DNA from: a phage
DNA: 64,000 nt
Sequence record: PX880102.1
Strand: one strand, 5' to 3'
Of this stretch, positions 2,652 to 49,318 are shown in pieces. Below the pieces are notes generated by a model. That model made no database searches. It was not told the DNA's origin and was given only the letters and a program-made list of their open reading frames with translations. The translations under genes and the position numbers were made by a program. The stretch's first letter is position 1. Every line of letters begins with the position of its first letter.

Positions 2652-5348
2652 TCAGCCAAACAGGAAGTCTAACGAAGCTTTTTCTTCATAGTCCATACCA
2701 GCCGATTCACACATGCCCGCAAGCGGTTTAACAAACGATTTTTGGAACAAAGTTGAGTAGTCAATCCAAGACAGTACGTCAGAACGAATTTCTTTTGGAA
2801 GTTCTGTGCCTGATGGCCAAGCAATGCACTTGTCACCAAATGGATTTCCTTCACGTAATGGAAGAACCATTACCTTATTTCCATCCAAAATTGGAGCTAC
2901 ACCTAAACCGCTAACAGCTCGACGATAAGTTAGCACGCCACGAATATGGAACGGACATTTAAATCCTGGCCAACCTTTATCATCATATTTCGCTATATCG
3001 TTCGCAGTTTTTACTTCAGCAATAACTTTATAGTCAAGTTGACGATATTCTTTCTCAAAGTTCTTGTAGTATTCTTGGACAGACTCTTCGCCTTCCTGAA
3101 GAATACGACGAATACTTTCTTCGAGAGCTTCTTGCACTGCTTTTGGTGTTGAACTCTGCTGAGTTTCCATACCCATGATTTTTAGATGCGGTTCAGCAAA
3201 TCGCTTATCTTCCATATCATAAACGTTCAGAGCATAACGTTTTTTCGCTTTCCAAAATCCACCAACACCCTTTGAACCAAGCGGAGGGCAAGAAATAGCT
3301 TCACGGTCCATATGCATCAGATGCTCGCGGTTATTCATATAATCACATAACTCACGATATGCAACATCAATCATAGGTTCCATCTTTTTCTTACCAAACT
3401 GATTCATGAATTCAACTAAATCATTTTGTTCTTTAAAGCGGTCAAGACCTACTTTTTCAATTACTTTATCTACACAAACATATACCGAATCAGTATCACC
3501 TGCTGCGATGAAATCTTCACCATTAGTTCCACATACTTTATTCAGATATTCATTAATTTTGCGAGCAATCCATTGAATACCAACTTGACCGAAAATTGTG
3601 ATAGCAGTAGCATTTCGCAAATCATAGTAACGGAAATGAATATTACCAAGAGCACCATAAAGACTGTTAATAAGAATTTTACGGTTCAGCTGATTTGTGT
3701 TAGCAAGTGTAGCGGCTTTTTCACATTCTTCAATCAGACTATTGAGAACAGATTCGGTGTAATTCGATAATTCGTTTAAGAAATCATCACTGAACTTAAC
3801 ATATCGTTCAACTTCTGGTTTAGTTGAACAAGACCCTGCACCTTTCATAATAATCTTTTTAATAGCTTCGGCATTCATTTCTTCCGCGAACATTTTCTTT
3901 TTCCAATCTTTACGCTGGAAAAATACTTTAGCGATTTCCTTTGGAATGATACCTTCTTGGTGCTTATCATACATCCATCCATTCGGAGAGCAAGAATATT
4001 CATCACTTGGCTTAGGAGCTGTTCCTGCGATATATTCATGAATTGGATGAACTTTAAATTGCCCACGAATAGTCTCAGGACTAATGTTAACCTGACGAAT
4101 AATGCTAGGATACAGAGACGTCAAGTCAAAACTCATAATGTATCTACGAGCAATCGGTTTAGGTTCAAACACAAATGCACCTGGAAAACTCTGTTTAACG
4201 TGCGAACCTTGTTGAGGAATAACCTTATGTTCACCTTTCAGTGAGTTAAAAATAATAGCATCCCAAGTTTTAATAGGACTCATTACACCAGAAAAAGGCA
4301 TTTTAGCGTAATAAGACATACTTAAAACTAGATCGATAAACCCACGAATTTTATCAATTGCTTGAACTGATTCTACGTCAATGATGTTATAACTAATGTA
4401 TCGTTGATGATTAGTCTCACGAAGTTTATTAATAGGACCATCGTACGGCAATTTACCTTTTTTGGTTTCATGTTGAGCAACTGATTCCAAAGAGAATGAT
4501 GGCAAATTAGTAAATGCGAATTTCTTGTACAAATCTAAATAATCAAGAATAGATACGCCATCAATAGAATAAATTTCTTTGCTACCGTACATATTTTGAA
4601 TTAGTTTAGATTTTACTCGACCGATTGGAGAGAAGCGCTTCATACTACGTTCACCGAGAACCATTTTAACGCGATTCATAATATACGGAACGTCAAATCC
4701 CTCAATATTCCAACCAGTAAAAATAGCAGGTCGTTTCTGTTCCCAGAGATTAATATATTCCATGAGCATATCACGCTCATTATCAAATGGCATATAAATT
4801 ACTCGGTCAAGAATTTCTTGAGGAACTTCATCACCACCTTCGCAGTCGAGCTTAGCAGCTAACTTTGCATCCCATTTTGATACTGAACCGTACATCGAAT
4901 TCAACAAATCAAAGACGTAAAAACGATCGTCAATTGAATCATAATGAGTGATAGCATCAATTTCATATTCTGCTTTCATTGGGTCAGGAAATTTATCACC
5001 AGTAACCTCAATGTCACAGTTAGCTACACGAACAAATTTTCGATCATAAACAATTTCTGAACCATATGTATCACTGATATAAGCGAGTTTAAAATCGTTC
5101 ATACCGAGAGCTTCGAGACCGATGTCTTCCATTCGCTTCATCCAGTCTCGTGCATCTTTCATTGATGGAAATTTTTGAGGAGCGCAATTTTTACCATAAA
5201 TGTCTTTGTATTTTGACTCTTCCTTACAATGTCTAAACATAGTCGGAAGATATTCTACTTCACGAGTACGTTCCTTTCCGTTTTCATCAATATAACGCTC
5301 AACAATATTATTTCCGACTGTTTCGATAGAGATATAAAATTCTTTCAT
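2652..5348 (-). CDS. 43: DNA polymerase gp43 (family B)
   Basis: 898 aa, same length as T4 gp43 and sequence recognised from memory (MKEFYISIETVGNN...); operator hairpin upstream. Confidence 0.97.
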   Translation of the reverse strand: MKEFYISIETVGNNIVERYIDENGKERTREVEYLPTMFRHCKEESKYKDIYGKNCAPQKFPSMKDARDWMKRMEDIGLEALGMNDFKLAYISDTYGSEIVYDRKFVRVANCDIEVTGDKFPDPMKAEYEIDAITHYDSIDDRFYVFDLLNSMYGSVSKWDAKLAAKLDCEGGDEVPQEILDRVIYMPFDNERDMLMEYINLWEQKRPAIFTGWNIEGFDVPYIMNRVKMVLGERSMKRFSPIGRVKSKLIQNMYGSKEIYSIDGVSILDYLDLYKKFAFTNLPSFSLESVAQHETKKGKLPYDGPINKLRETNHQRYISYNIIDVESVQAIDKIRGFIDLVLSMSYYAKMPFSGVMSPIKTWDAIIFNSLKGEHKVIPQQGSHVKQSFPGAFVFEPKPIARRYIMSFDLTSLYPSIIRQVNISPETIRGQFKVHPIHEYIAGTAPKPSDEYSCSPNGWMYDKHQEGIIPKEIAKVFFQRKDWKKKMFAEEMNAEAIKKIIMKGAGSCSTKPEVERYVKFSDDFLNELSNYTESVLNSLIEECEKAATLANTNQLNRKILINSLYGALGNIHFRYYDLRNATAITIFGQVGIQWIARKINEYLNKVCGTNGEDFIAAGDTDSVYVCVDKVIEKVGLDRFKEQNDLVEFMNQFGKKKMEPMIDVAYRELCDYMNNREHLMHMDREAISCPPLGSKGVGGFWKAKKRYALNVYDMEDKRFAEPHLKIMGMETQQSSTPKAVQEALEESIRRILQEGEESVQEYYKNFEKEYRQLDYKVIAEVKTANDIAKYDDKGWPGFKCPFHIRGVLTYRRAVSGLGVAPILDGNKVMVLPLREGNPFGDKCIAWPSGTELPKEIRSDVLSWIDYSTLFQKSFVKPLAGMCESAGMDYEEKASLDFLFG

Positions 5349-7593: not shown

Positions 7594-8280
7594 TTAAAAA
7601 TCGTGGGTAGAATCAGCTTCAAGAGCTACTACATAATTCGCGTGTTCACCTTCAAATTTAGCAGCACCCTGTTTACCTTTTGCCCAAAGCAGAAGTTTGT
7701 AATTTCCTGGTTGCATTTTCATATTTGCCATATTGATAATGAAATTAAATGTATTTTCACCATCATAATCACCAAGAGTCAAAGAATATTTAACGCGGGT
7801 CAAAGCAGAATCTTCTACTTTATTAAAACCGTTAATTACGATTTTACCTTCTTTTACTGTGATAGCAATTGTATCAATCTGCAGACCGCGAGATACACGC
7901 AACAGCTGCTGAAGGTCTTCAGCTTTAATTTCAGTAACAACAGATGCTACCGGGAATGGAATTGGTTTATTAGGAGCAACTACTGTGCTCGGATCGGCTG
8001 CTGGCCAAAAAATTGTTGAACGAGCATCAGCAATTTTAATATTTCCATCTTCTGACTGGGAAATTTCTGCATCGTCATTAACTAGAGACAGAATACCGAG
8101 AAAACCGTTCAAATCGTAAATTGCTACATCAAAATCAATAGTGTCAGAAATATTTGCTTCCGCATAAGTTGTACCATTAACTGCGCGAGTCATAATAAAT
8201 TGACCAGATTTAAGCATAATGCCAGAGTTAATAGTAGCGAAATTTTTAAGCAGAGCAGTAGTATCTTTAGACAGTTTCAT
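7594..8280 (-). CDS. 45: Sliding clamp gp45
   Basis: 228 aa; sequence matches T4 gp45 from memory. Confidence 0.95.
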   Translation of the reverse strand: MKLSKDTTALLKNFATINSGIMLKSGQFIMTRAVNGTTYAEANISDTIDFDVAIYDLNGFLGILSLVNDDAEISQSEDGNIKIADARSTIFWPAADPSTVVAPNKPIPFPVASVVTEIKAEDLQQLLRVSRGLQIDTIAITVKEGKIVINGFNKVEDSALTRVKYSLTLGDYDGENTFNFIINMANMKMQPGNYKLLLWAKGKQGAAKFEGEHANYVVALEADSTHDF

Positions 8281-44900: not shown

Positions 44901-44950
44901 CTTATTTCCTGTTTTAATTCGTGGATTTAATATACTACTATATTTATACT

Positions 44951-44978
44951 AAAAAGCCCCAACCTTTCGGTCGGGGCT
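44951..44978 (-). terminator. Intrinsic terminator at end of candidate small-RNA region (near-copy of 44392..44418)
   Basis: Same GCCCCAACC/GGTCGGGGC hairpin followed by U-run on minus strand. Confidence 0.6.
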
Positions 44979-44980
44979 AA

Positions 44981-45287
44981 GCCTTGCGGCAACCTTGTCG
45001 GGGTTCCACCTGCTAAGGCAAGTGTTTGTACGAAACGCCGGGATTCGAACCCGGTTATTAAGCAGTTGACGCTACTCAATATTTTTAAAAGGCCATATCT
45101 CGACCATATCCGAACGTTCCGTCAAAAACGCTACTCGGCTTACGGCAAAGATATTTCCTCGAATCGATAATTCTGTGCGCCGTTTCTGCTGTGATGTAAG
45201 AGGGCATCAATAAACGCAAGGATTATTAACGCAATTCCTTACTCAGGGAACATCAGTCCGACAACTTACCGGTAGCGACCCGGTTTC
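44981..45287 (-). ncRNA. Candidate small stable RNA(s) downstream of tRNA cluster (position of T4 species 1/2 RNAs)
   Basis: 307 nt with no ORF of 60 aa or more; tRNA-like T-arm CCGGG-TTCGAAT-CCCGG at 45038..45054; intrinsic terminator at 44951..44978. Confidence 0.4.
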
Positions 45288-45638
45288 TTAATATTCTTTT
45301 AAAGCATAAATCTGTTTACGGCGTTCACGCCATAAATCAATTGCTTCATACGCGGATTCAACATTTCGAATTGGACGGCATTTATATAAAGATTTGTGAT
45401 TTTGATATTGCGTAGATAACGGAATTTTATCTAAAAGGTCTTTACGTTCAAAGTATTCGTAACCATCTAAGCCAAATGAACGATTTTTGAGAAATTGCCA
45501 ATGACCAAATTCGTTTTGAATATAAATATAATCCGCGTGTTGATAAAGTAAATTAATTTCACGAAATGAGATATGTTTTTCATATTCATTGAAGTAAAAT
45601 GTTAAATCATGAACTACTAAATAAACATTACCTTTCAT
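45288..45638 (-). CDS. Hypothetical protein between tRNA-Arg and small-RNA region
   Basis: ORF track 116 aa. Confidence 0.45.
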   Translation of the reverse strand: MKGNVYLVVHDLTFYFNEYEKHISFREINLLYQHADYIYIQNEFGHWQFLKNRSFGLDGYEYFERKDLLDKIPLSTQYQNHKSLYKCRPIRNVESAYEAIDLWRERRKQIYALKEY

Positions 45639-45654
45639 ATTTTCCTCACTTAAT

Positions 45655-45730
45655 TGGTCGAGGCAGTAGGGATCGAACCTACGACCTAGGACTTAGAAGG
45701 TCCTTGCTCTTCCTTCTGAGCTATGCCCCG
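45655..45730 (-). tRNA. tRNA-Arg (anticodon TCT)
   Basis: Manual fold: 7-bp acceptor, T-loop GGTTCGATCC, anticodon loop CTTCTAA, CCA encoded. Confidence 0.8.
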
Positions 45731-45734
45731 TAAT

Positions 45735-45810
45735 TGGGGTGACCGATGGGAGTCGAACCCATGACTACGAGAATCACAATCTCGAGTTCTACCAACTGAA
45801 CTACGGCCAC
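45735..45810 (-). tRNA. tRNA-His (anticodon GTG)
   Basis: Manual fold: acceptor with one GU pair, anticodon loop TTGTGAT, discriminator C, CCA encoded. Confidence 0.75.
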
Positions 45811-45924
45811 ATTAATACCTACTCCAACAATCAAGATGTCTTCACACGAAATTAAGAGAAGAGTGATCAGTTCAACCCCTATAATCGCGTCAAGTAGATA
45901 TTATTGTGACAGTTGTCACAAATT

Positions 45925-45999
45925 TGGCGGACGTGATAGGATTCGAACCTATAACCAATCGCTTAACAGGCGATCGCTCTGCCATTGAGCTACACATCC
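45925..45999 (-). tRNA. tRNA-Asn (anticodon GTT)
   Basis: Manual fold: anticodon loop CTGTTAA, discriminator G, CCA encoded. Confidence 0.75.
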
Positions 46000-46003
46000 A
46001 AAT

Positions 46004-46090
46004 TGGTGGGGAGTGATGGAGTCGAACCACCCGAGTCGCAATGACAATGGATTTACAGTCCACACCGCTACCTCTACGGGATAACTCCCC
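46004..46090 (-). tRNA. tRNA-Tyr (anticodon GTA), long variable arm
   Basis: Manual fold: perfect 7-bp acceptor GGGGAGT/ACTCCCC, anticodon loop CTGTAAA, 87 nt. Confidence 0.75.
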
Positions 46091-46103
46091 TTAATTCTTA
46101 ATT

Positions 46104-46178
46104 TGGTGGCCCTGGGTGGAATTGAACCACCATCTGGCGATTATGAGTCGCTTGCTTGAACCTTCCAGCTACAGGGCC
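46104..46178 (-). tRNA. tRNA with CAT anticodon (Ile2-type by T4 synteny, or Met)
   Basis: Manual fold: acceptor GGCCCTG/CAGGGCC, anticodon loop CTCATAA. Confidence 0.75.
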
Positions 46179-46179
46179 T

Positions 46180-46255
46180 TGGTGCTGATTGACGGAATCG
46201 AACCGCCGACCTTCTCATTACAAGTGAGTTGCTCTACCTACTGAGCTAAATCAGC
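46180..46255 (-). tRNA. tRNA-Thr (anticodon TGT)
   Basis: Manual fold: acceptor GCTGATT/AATCAGC, anticodon loop CTTGTAA. Confidence 0.75.
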
Positions 46256-46260
46256 AAAAC

Positions 46261-46350
46261 TGGCGGAGGCGATAGGATTTGAACCTATGAGTCGCCGGAG
46301 CGACTGCCGGTTTTCAAGACCGGTGCATTAAACCACTCTGCCACGCCTCC
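46261..46350 (-). tRNA. tRNA-Ser (anticodon TGA), long variable arm
   Basis: Manual fold: acceptor GGAGGCG/CGCCTCC, anticodon loop CTTGAAA, discriminator G. Confidence 0.8.
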
Positions 46351-46352
46351 AG

Positions 46353-46426
46353 TCTCCATACAAGGATTTGAACCTTGGACCTCCTGATCCCAAATCAGGC
46401 GCTCTACCAAACTGAGCTACACGGAG
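46353..46426 (-). tRNA. tRNA-Pro (anticodon TGG), CCA not encoded
   Basis: Manual fold: acceptor with two GU pairs, anticodon loop TTTGGGA. Confidence 0.7.
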
Positions 46427-46436
46427 TAAATTAAAT

Positions 46437-46510
<74 letters not shown>

Positions 46511-46515
46511 AAATT

Positions 46516-46602
46516 TGGTGCGAGAAGTGGGACTCGAACCCACAAGGAAATCATTCCGCAGCATTTTAAGTGCTGTGCCTTTACCAATTTGACCATTCTC
46601 GC
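46516..46602 (-). tRNA. tRNA-Leu (anticodon TAA), long variable arm
   Basis: Manual fold: acceptor GCGAGAA/TTCTCGC, anticodon stem CAGCA/TGCTG, loop CTTAAAA. Confidence 0.8.
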
Positions 46603-46608
46603 GCTATA

Positions 46609-47241
46609 TTATTTATTACGTGAAAAAGACTGTTCTATCAATTCTGGACACTTTCGTTCTATCCATTTTCTAGCTTTTTGTGGGCTTATACCTATTATTT
46701 TAGCAGCTTTACTAACCCATCCAAATTTAGAATAATCGATTTTAACTAATTCTTCGTAAATTTCATCAGTTAAAATCTTTTCATTAATATTTACCAGTAA
46801 ATGATATAATTTATTATCATTAGCAATTTTAATGAATCTTTTATAGTTTCCGCCTTTACTTAAACCTAATGAAGTAATTGCAGATGATATAGTAGCCGAA
46901 TTTAATAACGCGTTTAAAATTTCTTCATCACTAACATTATAACGCTTTTTATTATTTTTAATATTTTTACCAGCAAAAGTATCAGTTTGCGAATGGCAGT
47001 TTGGACATAATAATCTTAAATTAGATTTAAGATGATTTTTGTTATTTCCATCAATATGGTCTAATTGCAGAACAATATGCTTATTTTGCCATTTTGAAAT
47101 TTTACAAATTGCACACTCATATGGAAAAATATTTTCTTTTATTATTTTGTCTTTCAGCTTTCCTGTACTAAAATTTGGATGTTTTCCTTCAAAAATTTCA
47201 GCTAATTTAGTATCCATAATATAATTCCCAATTATTAACAA
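46609..47241 (-). CDS. HNH homing endonuclease, free-standing, abutting the tRNA array
   Basis: 210 aa; HNH motif HIDGNNKNHLKSNLRLLCPNCH with extra Cys pair CAIC; stop 7 nt from tRNA-Leu. Confidence 0.75.
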   Translation of the reverse strand: MLIIGNYIMDTKLAEIFEGKHPNFSTGKLKDKIIKENIFPYECAICKISKWQNKHIVLQLDHIDGNNKNHLKSNLRLLCPNCHSQTDTFAGKNIKNNKKRYNVSDEEILNALLNSATISSAITSLGLSKGGNYKRFIKIANDNKLYHLLVNINEKILTDEIYEELVKIDYSKFGWVSKAAKIIGISPQKARKWIERKCPELIEQSFSRNK

Positions 47242-47327
47242 AGGCTCTTAAGCAAGAACCCTTGATGATAGAGGGTATTAATCAGTGCGATATGAGTTAA
47301 TAATAACAAATAATTCTTAAAGCATAT

Positions 47328-47621
47328 TTACCATTTATGATAATACATATTTACGATGCATTCAAGACCCAAAGGATTCTTGAAAATATCATATTCAAGA
47401 GGACCTTTTTCTGTTTCAATAAAGAAATCAAAATTTACTGTATTAAATTTACGGTCTTCCTTTACTAATTTAACTTGAGAAGATGAACGGTCAATGTAAA
47501 CCTTTTCAACTTCAAAATATGTTAAAATGCCATAATCATCAATCAAGGCTTTAGCTGCTTCTTGATCATATTTATATCCATTTTCAATGGATGATACTTT
47601 CGCATAAAGAATCATTATCAA
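47328..47621 (-). CDS. Hypothetical protein
   Basis: ORF track 97 aa. Confidence 0.45.
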   Translation of the reverse strand: MIMILYAKVSSIENGYKYDQEAAKALIDDYGILTYFEVEKVYIDRSSSQVKLVKEDRKFNTVNFDFFIETEKGPLEYDIFKNPLGLECIVNMYYHKW

Positions 47622-48007
47622 CCTTCATCAACAATAGTGTGCGTATTGGCATTAACTATTTGCCACCAATCAAAGCGATTAGAACCATACATCGGTTTGT
47701 TTTCATTTTCTTTGATAATATCACGGAGTTCATCTTCGGTAGCGGCTTTCGCTATTAAATCAGCATATCCACCACGAGGATAATAATTATCACCTGCAAA
47801 AAGTAAAAAGTTTGGTTTAATGTTATTGAACTCTTCAAGAGTAATAACTTTTCCTGACGGTTGAACAATCTCTACATATTTATATCCCAATTTTTGGGCA
47901 GCATCTACTGCTTCAAGCAAAGTATCATGAGCCCATCCAATTTGACAGCCTGGCTTTTCAGATGGATTAGCCTGATAATCCGCATACACTTTATACATTC
48001 TATTCAC
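47618..48007 (-). CDS. Hypothetical protein
   Basis: ORF track 129 aa. Confidence 0.45.
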   Translation of the reverse strand: MNRMYKVYADYQANPSEKPGCQIGWAHDTLLEAVDAAQKLGYKYVEIVQPSGKVITLEEFNNIKPNFLLFAGDNYYPRGGYADLIAKAATEDELRDIIKENENKPMYGSNRFDWWQIVNANTHTIVDEG

Positions 48008-48185
48008 CTTTAGAAATTTTATCCATAACGATAGCGATTAAACCAATTAAAAATGCTACTACAAGTGAAAACACATTTTCTGCTGTAGTCAATAATCCGC
48101 ATATAAATCCAACAAACATTGAAAAACTAAAAGCAGAAGCAGAAATTGCAATAGCAACATTTCGAATTAATTCACAACGTTTCAT
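48000..48185 (-). CDS. Hypothetical small membrane protein
   Basis: ORF track 61 aa, hydrophobic; early promoter upstream. Confidence 0.45.
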   Translation of the reverse strand: MKRCELIRNVAIAISASAFSFSMFVGFICGLLTTAENVFSLVVAFLIGLIAIVMDKISKGE

Positions 48186-48211
48186 TTTATTCTCCTCGGT
48201 AATTGATAGGG

Positions 48212-48243
48212 TAATAGTATCACAACTAAAACCCTATGTAAAC
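48212..48243 (-). promoter_or_regulatory. T4-type early promoter
   Basis: GTTTAC and GTGATACTATTA on minus strand. Confidence 0.55.
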
Positions 48244-48261
48244 AACTTTGTGAAATATTTA

Positions 48262-48549
48262 TTACAAAAGATTTTTAGCAATAATCTTGAGATGTGCCGC
48301 AGAAATGTGTTTAGCTTTAAACAACGCAGTTTCTTCAGCAGGAGAGATAATGATTGTAGCACCATCCTTTTTAGCAGACCACCCATCACCTAGGTAAACA
48401 GTACCTTTGATTTCTTCGCCATCAACCAAGCTAATCATTGGTTTACCTTCTCGTCCTTTATTTGCTTTAATAACTTCAGAAGTAAGAGTAGCTTCAGTAA
48501 TAGTAGAAACCGGGGTAGTTGTAGAAGTAAACTCTTTGAAAGTTTTCAT
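48262..48549 (-). CDS. ipI: Internal protein I (IPI)-position head protein with capsid targeting sequence
   Basis: 95 aa; N-terminus MKTFKEFTST; position upstream of 57B as in T4; early promoter upstream. Confidence 0.65.
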   Translation of the reverse strand: MKTFKEFTSTTTPVSTITEATLTSEVIKANKGREGKPMISLVDGEEIKGTVYLGDGWSAKKDGATIIISPAEETALFKAKHISAAHLKIIAKNLL

Positions 48550-48577
48550 TTTATTTTCCTAATTAATTTTGATGAGA

Positions 48578-48609
48578 TAATAGTATCACTACCTCATCAG
48601 CATGTAAAC
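48578..48609 (-). promoter_or_regulatory. T4-type early promoter upstream of ipI
   Basis: GTTTAC and GTGATACTATTA on minus strand. Confidence 0.55.
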
Positions 48610-48621
48610 AACTTTGTGAAA

Positions 48622-49318
<697 letters not shown>

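Follow-up and report, generated by a model that had tools for sequence, protein, structure and literature searches.

The 64,000-nucleotide stretch of phage DNA in sequence record PX880102.1 (hereafter the window) carries on its minus strand an open reading frame (ORF) for an HNH-type nuclease, which is followed directly by an array of ten tRNA genes. Our preferred explanation, which we consider probable, is that this is the gene of an active free-standing HNH (His-Me finger) homing endonuclease that targets the tRNA-Gln/tRNA-Leu junction of HNH-less relatives, its activity being predicted. The gene sits at the promoter-proximal head of the Tequatrovirus tRNA cluster, where it occupies the slot of tRNA-Gln. 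The occurrence of an HNH ORF beside the tRNA array, as put forward in the original prediction, is confirmed and is far beyond chance.

Insertion of the HNH gene into the tRNA-Gln slot

The window represents part of a Tequatrovirus (T4-like) genome. Its positions 45500-48100 match about 1,100 phage records and are 98.1% identical to Escherichia phages slur03 and slur14. In T4 the order of transcription in this region is trna.4, trna.3, trna.2, tRNA-Gln, Leu, Gly, Pro, Ser, Thr, Ile, segB, tRNA-Arg, rnaD, rnaC, and in HNH-less relatives (T4, wV7, ESh26, G4500, RB5 and others) tRNA-Gln is located 1 nt upstream of tRNA-Leu(UAA). We aligned the flanks with those of T4, a comparison proposed in the original prediction; the BLAST alignment stops at 46605 and restarts at 47222, and the breakpoints are identical when wV7, ESh26 or G4500 is used instead. 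They delimit an inserted cassette of 616 bp (46606..47221, minus strand; ±1, with an A shared at each junction), which holds a single ORF and stands in for the 62-nt interior of tRNA-Gln(UUG) of the HNH-less relatives. Alignment with T4 tRNA-Gln shows that the first 9 nt of this tRNA gene (TGGGAATTA; 47222..47230, minus strand) have been left in place next to the cassette. Both junctions are the same in six of six other carriers, namely, slur14, CM8, Ec_O157kw, MLF4, pSe_SNUABM_01 and phiD1. The arrays of these phages comprise six to ten tRNA genes, and tRNA-Gln is absent from all six within the stretches of about 2 to 12 kb on each side of the gene. Since the junctions coincide and tRNA-Gln is gone in the carriers, the insertion points to a single origin within Tequatrovirus, at the cost of tRNA-Gln. 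Such presence or absence at a homologous locus with sharp boundaries, here established with four HNH-less phages and six carriers, is what is expected of a homing gene.

The first gene of the array and direct downstream neighbor of the HNH gene is tRNA-Leu(UAA) (46516..46602, minus strand; ARAGORN, with an Rfam tRNA score of 59.3 bits). The complete array, defined with ARAGORN and Rfam, spans 45655..46602 on the minus strand and consists of Leu, Gly, Pro, Ser, Thr, Met(CAU), Tyr, Asn, His and Arg. It equals the array of wV7, ESh26 and G4500 minus tRNA-Gln, with 98.8% identity to wV7 over 1,562 nt, and its tRNA-Leu-Gly stretch is 100% identical to T4. That the ORF abuts tRNA-Leu holds, except that the gap is 6 nt and not 7 as first given, because the stop codon occupies 46611-46609 and ARAGORN places the 5′ end of tRNA-Leu at 46602. 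The spacer, TATAGC (46603..46608, minus strand; ARAGORN and alignment), ends in a GC that corresponds to the two bases preceding tRNA-Leu in T4, that is, the final base of tRNA-Gln and the lone base of the spacer there.

Coding sequence and expression signals

ORF finding lists the ORF exactly as it was originally drawn, at 46609..47241 on the minus strand, with a TTG start and 210 aa. The true start is nevertheless very probably the ATG at 47217, which gives a coding sequence for an HNH endonuclease of 202 aa (46609..47217, minus strand) ending in TAA. Several comparisons argue for this start: residue 9 of the 210-aa ORF is where alignment with the PHROG 14736 profile (202 positions) begins, the RefSeq annotation in slur14 is a 609-nt coding sequence, relatives of 58-68% identity begin at the equivalent Met, and the eight extra codons are conserved non-coding DNA in HNH-less phages. 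The 5′ extension of the longer ORF (47218..47241, minus strand, from TTG 47241) holds the tRNA-Gln remnant and aligns with T4 non-coding DNA upstream of and within tRNA-Gln. It is probably a leader that is not translated.

A candidate T4 middle (MotA-dependent) promoter can be read from the sequence at 47300..47324 (minus strand), directly after the stop codon of trna.2. It consists of TGCTTTA (47324-47318), presumably a match to the MotA-box consensus of T4 middle promoters, 12 nt and TATTAT (47305-47300), and is identical in T4 upstream of tRNA-Gln. A generic scan for sigma-70 promoters and terminators, which is uninformative for T4 middle and late promoters, returned nothing specific at this position. 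Between the candidate promoter and the HNH start, RNA folding predicts an 11-bp hairpin, CAAGGGUUCUU-GCUU-AAGAGCCUUUG, followed by a U/A-rich tract (47239..47264, minus strand), which is kept in T4 upstream of tRNA-Gln and in other phages. The fold of the whole leader is not significantly more stable than that of shuffled sequence (z-score -1.2), and we therefore make no claim that the ribosome-binding site is sequestered. GGGA, located within the tRNA-Gln remnant about 9 nt upstream of the ATG, may now act as a weak Shine-Dalgarno sequence.

Nuclease domain and predicted fold

The HNH motif seen in the ORF by the original prediction is present and complete (C35-x2-C38, D53-H54, N66, C71-P-N-C74-H75), and family searches likewise identify the protein as an HNH-type nuclease. 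The best-matching family is PHROG 14736, 'HNH endonuclease' (E-value = 6e-124), and the PADLOC 'homing endonuclease' model covers the nuclease domain (E-value = 3e-19). In alignments of 12 and of 56 homologues, D53-H54, N66 and H75 are invariant, in agreement with the catalytic His, the Asn and the terminal metal-binding His of HNH nucleases. The two CxxC pairs (C35-x2-C38 and C71-x2-C74) are invariant in both alignments as well, as expected of a structural zinc site. The AlphaFold2 model, built from 56 sequences, has a mean pLDDT (predicted local distance difference test) of 90.3. Its N-terminal segment is helical and precedes a beta-beta-alpha core (about residues 31-90), which corresponds to the fold of this nuclease superfamily; helical modules follow at 97-134 and 151-195, connected by linkers of lower confidence. 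Based on the model, we predict a zinc-finger HNH nuclease domain at the N-terminus and, towards the C-terminus, two helix-turn-helix-like modules. Phage homing endonucleases are built from a small nuclease domain and DNA-binding 'beads on a string' (PMC2988022), and the modelled architecture of the HNH protein is of this kind. A sequence search of the PDB with the HNH protein gave no significant match, and Foldseek with the whole AlphaFold2 model as a query gave no informative one.

We also considered membership in a defence system and rejected it, because NCBIfam and PADLOC models (IscB, ZorE, generic homing endonuclease) match the nuclease domain only and score far below curated cut-offs. 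Many public genomes label the gene 'HNH endonuclease' or 'homing endonuclease', the former prevailing among the records that carry it, and our literature searches found no description of the Tequatrovirus HNH gene. The gene is widely annotated, yet appears uncharacterised.

Distribution, selection and exchange among Tequatrovirus phages

The HNH gene is found in 64 public Tequatrovirus records, full length in all of them and at least 97.8% identical, and the contiguous T4-type tRNA-Gln allele in 441. The carriers are phages of Escherichia, Shigella, Salmonella and Yersinia and belong to many Tequatrovirus species. We found no isolate with both an intact tRNA-Gln and the HNH gene; this form is present only in an uncultured contig (L006, see below). 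When the relatives of 68% and 58% identity were used as tblastn queries against cultured phages, only the same 64 records were retrieved.

Among carriers, the gene is 98.4-99.5% identical, and trna.2/trna.3 just upstream are 92-98% identical. In 250-bp bins, carriers are 98.8-100% identical to the window over 46250-47250 and 92-96% identical in the upstream trna.2/trna.3. The mean identity of the trna.2 flank is 96.6% between two carriers, 97.0% between a carrier and an HNH-less phage, and 97.3% between two HNH-less phages; the flank nearest to that of the window (99.7%) belongs to HNH-less ESh26. Flanking haplotypes are thus shared between carriers and HNH-less phages and are not sorted by the presence of the gene. 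Within the coding sequence, five of six comparisons have 3-7 synonymous and no non-synonymous differences, and phiD1 has 6 and 4, respectively, which sums to 29 synonymous vs 4 non-synonymous differences. Synonymous divergence of trna.3 is several-fold above that of the HNH coding sequence (10-20 differences in 390 nt). The substitution pattern shows that the HNH protein is under purifying selection, as befits a functional coding gene. Judging from the same comparisons, the history of the gene is decoupled from that of its flanks, a property of homing genes that fits homing with short co-conversion.

The original prediction held that the nuclease could drive preferential inheritance of the local tRNA cassette. 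By analogy with SegB (PMC2330249) this is plausible. We set aside long co-conversion of the cassette, as the arrays of carriers (6-10 tRNAs) and their flanks differ; the comparative data speak against it because the flanks of carriers are no more alike than those of HNH-negative phages.

Relatives of the HNH protein and their link to tRNA genes

A search of 5.8 billion proteins gave 5,527 matches. The nearest full-length relatives (68%, 58% and 58% identity) come from uncultured T4-like contigs, in which they occupy the same syntenic spot: gp2, gp3, gp1, 57A and 57B/Acb1 are followed, in L006, by homologues of trna.4/.3/.2, then by the HNH gene and tRNAs. In L006, which encodes the 68% relative, the HNH gene starts 14 nt after an intact tRNA-Gln(UUG). 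Compared with these distant T4-like phages, the HNH protein (58-68% identity) matches or exceeds gp1 (45-54%), gp3 (46-51%) and trna.2-4 (41-53%) in conservation and ranks below 57B (68-76%), a pattern that fits either long residence or later transfer.

Further relatives are encoded in 80 viral loci of an IMG/VR set (L012-L091), most of them sharing the nuclease domain only. tRNA genes lie within 4 kb in 77 of the 80 loci, and 63 loci have at least three tRNAs, nearly always on the same strand. In 30 loci the end of the ORF is within 10 nt of, or overlaps, a downstream same-strand tRNA. The abutted tRNA is of class II in 21 of these 30 loci (Leu in 15, including 11 with the UAA anticodon, Tyr in five and Ser in one), compared with a class II background of 21% (binomial p ~1e-8; 18 of 26 after clustering at 70% identity), although the loci are not all independent and the count covers this family. 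Full-length relatives repeatedly adjoin tRNA-Gln(UUG) (L006, L012, L013 and L055). That HNH genes accompany tRNA arrays of phages and mycobacteria has already been published (PMC5966550, PMC6409571); for the tight abutment and the class II bias, our literature searches found no description. A tentative generalization, to which we give limited credence, is that the protein is one of a widespread HNH lineage of tRNA-gene specialists. They would settle at the 5′ edges of such genes, preferably those of class II, tRNA processing would finish their mRNAs, and tRNA repertoires would be remodelled along the way, here through erasure of tRNA-Gln.

Some of these loci have further peculiarities. In several IMG/VR loci the HNH stop codon is located inside the tRNA. 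The uncultured T4-like contig L008 encodes, further down the same tRNA array, a second HNH paralogue (7695-7958) with 50% identity to residues 6-95, so a single array can host several members of the family. In L006, about 400 nt after the HNH stop codon (4604-5009) contain no called gene, tRNA or Rfam match and begin with GCGAGA, like the 5′ end of tRNA-Leu; this segment may be a decayed tRNA or a novel RNA. Past the next tRNA, another stretch of about 230 nt (5087-5316) is likewise devoid of called genes, tRNAs and Rfam matches.

Relation to SegB and other endonuclease slots

The original prediction placed the HNH gene where T4 carries segB and viewed it as a non-orthologous replacement at the same hotspot. 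In agreement with it, the HNH gene is absent from T4, and the two endonucleases belong to different families: all Pfam and PHROG matches of the protein are HNH, and the GIY-YIG family characteristic of the SegB catalytic domain is absent among them. Their positions do not coincide. T4 segB is located between tRNA-Ile and tRNA-Arg, as also tabulated in the review by Edgell (PMC2988022), in the distal part of the array and about 0.5 kb further along it than the tRNA-Gln slot, whereas the HNH gene is proximal. The shared hotspot therefore survives only at the scale of the whole cluster. The reading in which the HNH gene has replaced GIY-YIG SegB at one hotspot and taken over its role has in its favor that both are endonuclease genes within the T-even tRNA cluster, that T4 has segB and not the HNH gene, and that SegB drives inheritance of the tRNA region (PMC2330249). 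We give it next to no credence, because the breakpoints of the HNH cassette lie within tRNA-Gln, because both types of endonuclease gene coexist in some phages and because both are missing from many others, wV7, RB5 and ESh26 among them. Coexistence is seen in Salmonella phage pSe_SNUABM_01, which has a homing endonuclease gene of 666 nt, as long as T4 segB, in addition to the HNH gene, and in CM8 (L003, 2591-3199) and Ec_O157kw (L004, 2513-3121), which combine the HNH gene with a SegB/SegD-like gene in the tRNA-Pro slot, between tRNA-Ser and tRNA-Gly. AR1 has a GIY-YIG-type SegB/SegD-like gene in the tRNA-Pro slot (L097, 738-1388) and tRNA-Gln instead of the HNH gene; the tRNA clusters of wV7, RB5 and ESh26 are free of endonuclease genes. 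The occurrence of HNH, SegB-like and segB genes in such varied combinations indicates at least three independent endonuclease slots in the T-even cluster. At the tRNA-Pro slot, as at that of tRNA-Gln, an endonuclease gene has taken the place of a tRNA gene, the second such instance in this cluster.

T4 SegB remains an instructive parallel. Both are free-standing endonuclease genes among T-even tRNA genes, the segB ORF ends directly at tRNA-Arg, and both are sporadic among relatives; homing of SegB replaces non-homologous DNA of the tRNA region (PMC2330249). They differ in catalytic family (GIY-YIG vs HNH), in slot (tRNA-Ile/tRNA-Arg vs tRNA-Gln) and in the kind of evidence, since activity, target and homing of SegB have been shown experimentally, its target being the T-psi-C region of tRNA genes with a preferred site in tRNA-Asn (PMC2330249), whereas the HNH gene is known from sequence.

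Comparison with other HNH systems

Among cultured phages outside Tequatrovirus, the closest counterparts include one in Bacillus phage Thrax1 (35.5% identity) and, marginally below it, T5p073, an HNH gene of the T5 tRNA cluster. The latter match (tblastn; 34.7% identity, E-value = 5e-15) covers residues 16-184, or 84% of the protein, so the similarity is essentially full length. T5p073 likewise has an HNH domain and a helix-turn-helix region and starts 23 nt after tRNA-Ile inside a tRNA cluster. It differs in having an extra N-terminal helix-turn-helix/LuxR-like domain and another C-terminus, and its identity is only about one third. F-TflI and F-TflII as well as F-TflIV, the HNH enzymes of the T5 tRNA region studied by Akulenko et al. 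in 2004, are reportedly site-specific endonucleases. T5p073 stands for this group in our comparison. Two GenBank records name the Tequatrovirus gene 'H-N-H endonuclease F-TflIV', a label that we treat as tentative.

MobA-E and I-TevIII of T4 belong to the same HNH superfamily and share the free-standing HNH domain with a C-terminal DNA-binding region; Mob genes are expressed in the middle or late period, and nicking by their products is followed by preferential inheritance (PMC2988022), a lifestyle that the HNH gene, known through its sequence, would resemble. They reside at other loci and have no sequence relationship to the HNH protein at tblastn E ≤ 1e-3, as inferred from counts: 253 phage records were matched, compared with more than 600 Tequatrovirus records that contain mob genes. 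HNH genes in the tRNA arrays of mycobacteriophages and other viruses represent the same general phenomenon. HNH genes are the commonest protein-coding genes in phage tRNA arrays and have been proposed to spread or reshuffle tRNA genes (PMC5966550, PMC6409571). These surveys are at the level of annotation and, unlike our analysis, delimit neither the insertion nor the disappearance of one particular tRNA gene, nor do they describe class II abutment.

Proposed homing cycle and alternative explanations

If the gene encodes an active homing endonuclease, its cycle may be pictured as follows. The HNH gene and the tRNA precursor would share a transcript, for which the conserved middle-type promoter downstream of trna.2 is the probable source. 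By processing this transcript where tRNA-Leu begins, RNase P would set the 3′ end of the mRNA 6 nt beyond the stop codon; similar tRNA processing was proposed by the authors of the SegB study to trim segB mRNA at tRNA-Arg (PMC2330249). The two C-terminal helix-turn-helix modules would bind DNA, and the N-terminal zinc-finger HNH domain would nick or cut it. When a carrier and an HNH-less relative infect the same cell, the relative's intact tRNA-Gln/tRNA-Leu region would be the presumed target, as the position of the insertion suggests; nicking of the target and preferential inheritance are known for HNH Mob enzymes (PMC2988022). Repair from the HNH-positive genome would then copy the cassette in, delete tRNA-Gln and co-convert short flanks only. 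The carrier itself is proposed to be immune because the insertion has destroyed the target site.

Several considerations weigh against this reading. The match to Pfam HNH (PF01844) scores 17.2 bits, below the gathering score of 21.4, so the HNH assignment relies on PHROG 14736, the motif and the predicted fold; for its close relatives P0003 and P0004, a weak match to PF01844 is on record. We infer the target site only from where the cassette is inserted, and cleavage, nicking and preferential inheritance of the gene itself are proposed by analogy. A classical homing event would not remove 62 nt, hence the replacement calls for something more, be it illegitimate repair or a deletion at a later time. 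We speculate that a secondary deletion may have started from an L006-like arrangement, with tRNA-Gln followed by the HNH gene, perhaps via AATTA, which occurs where tRNA-Gln begins and again, in L006, downstream of the tRNA. In addition, general recombination, which is frequent in T-even phages, could contribute to the decoupling from the flanks and could equally explain the short apparent co-conversion. Finally, persistence at the same syntenic spot also fits a resident gene that benefits the phage.

The last point leads to the idea of a domesticated nuclease that is kept for its use to the phage, be it cutting DNA of competitors or of the host, excluding co-infecting relatives or acting on the tRNA operon, and does not home. 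The gene indeed holds its spot in T4-like phages whose core genes are only 45-55% identical, its product is at least as conserved as gp1 and gp3 and under strong purifying selection, and the family is tied to tRNA arrays in many phage lineages. We still consider domestication improbable, as the HNH gene occurs in no more than about one-eighth of the Tequatrovirus records at this locus, the near-isogenic ESh26 and wV7 manage without it, the combination of HNH with beads-on-a-string DNA-binding modules is the architecture of phage homing endonucleases, and no defence-system model matches beyond the nuclease domain. Another possibility is that the mobile unit comprises the HNH gene and tRNA-Leu(UAA), the enzyme recognising the 5′ part of a class II tRNA, with tRNA-Gln lost collaterally. 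The class II excess among abutting loci, 11 of them with tRNA-Leu(UAA) as in the window, is what such a unit would produce. Those loci, however, encode mostly short proteins with the nuclease domain only, whose specificities may differ, and full-length relatives more often adjoin tRNA-Gln(UUG); besides, tRNA-Leu-Gly is 98-100% identical in carriers and non-carriers, with no cassette boundary there. We thus regard this alternative as rather unlikely. It is very improbable that the gene is an inactive relic of a past invasion which, like the deleted I-TevIII of T4, merely marks the loss of tRNA-Gln. A weak ribosome-binding site, the sub-threshold Pfam HNH score and knowledge limited to sequence would be compatible with decay. 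This is countered by the full-length ORF in 64 of 64 records, the intact set of catalytic and zinc-binding residues, the excess of synonymous differences in the six comparisons and the confident structure model. Taken together, homing at the tRNA-Gln/tRNA-Leu junction is the explanation that we favor.

Other features of the region

The Rfam scans of the window and of L006 detected only tRNAs. The gene at 46104-46178 (minus strand) is called tRNA-Met(CAT) by ARAGORN; its isotype (Met or lysidine-modified Ile) is uncertain, because ARAGORN also calls T4 tRNA-Ile 'Met(cat)'. The 114-nt spacer between tRNA-Asn and tRNA-His (45811-45924, minus strand) has a stable predicted fold (-32.9 kcal/mol, z -3.4) and no Rfam match, and could be a small stable RNA or a decayed tRNA. 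The same spacing is found in wV7, G4500 and AR1, and both tRNA-His and the spacer are missing from Ec_O157kw and RB5. At the distal end, a 116-aa ORF of phrog_3355 (45288-45638, minus strand) lies between tRNA-Arg and a segment homologous to T4 rnaD/rnaC (44946-45288, 96.8% identical to T4). wV7, G4500 and CM8 have this ORF, but T4 and RB5 do not; in T4, rnaD directly follows tRNA-Arg.

Upstream of the cluster, CM8 (L003, 4126-4641), MLF4 and phiD1 (L009, 12709-13221, and L011, 12709-13224) have an additional ORF, about 515 nt long, that separates trna.2 from the HNH gene. In AR1 (L097, 1719-2234) an ORF of this size is located between trna.2 and tRNA-Gln, and spacing indicates the same for slur07, teqskov and G2540. 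This polymorphism is independent of HNH status. Two segments of about 84 nt (48180-48260 and 48544-48637) flank an internal-protein gene and recur with 75-92% identity around ip genes in slur14, T4, CM8 and Ec_O157kw. They are probably repeated promoter-bearing intergenic regions that permit swaps of ip genes.

Implications for tRNA gene content of T4-like phages

The HNH gene is an ordinary example of a familiar class of mobile genes. Dozens of genomes already carry its annotation, and that HNH genes are linked to tRNA arrays has been published, so the advance is incremental. Most useful are the exact pair of filled and empty alleles, the erasure of tRNA-Gln by the insertion and the pattern of tRNA abutment at the level of the family. 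The phage of the window and wV7 or ESh26 make up a clean near-isogenic pair, filled and empty, for testing the HNH homing endonuclease. The slots at tRNA-Gln (HNH), tRNA-Pro (SegB-like) and tRNA-Ile/tRNA-Arg (segB) can be filled independently, which corrects the map of endonuclease genes in the cluster. Gaining the HNH gene costs the phage a tRNA gene, and this bears on differences in tRNA sets among close relatives. If the tentative picture of an HNH lineage specialised on tRNA genes is true, part of the variation in tRNA content of T4-like and other large phages would be a by-product of homing and not the outcome of selection on codon usage.

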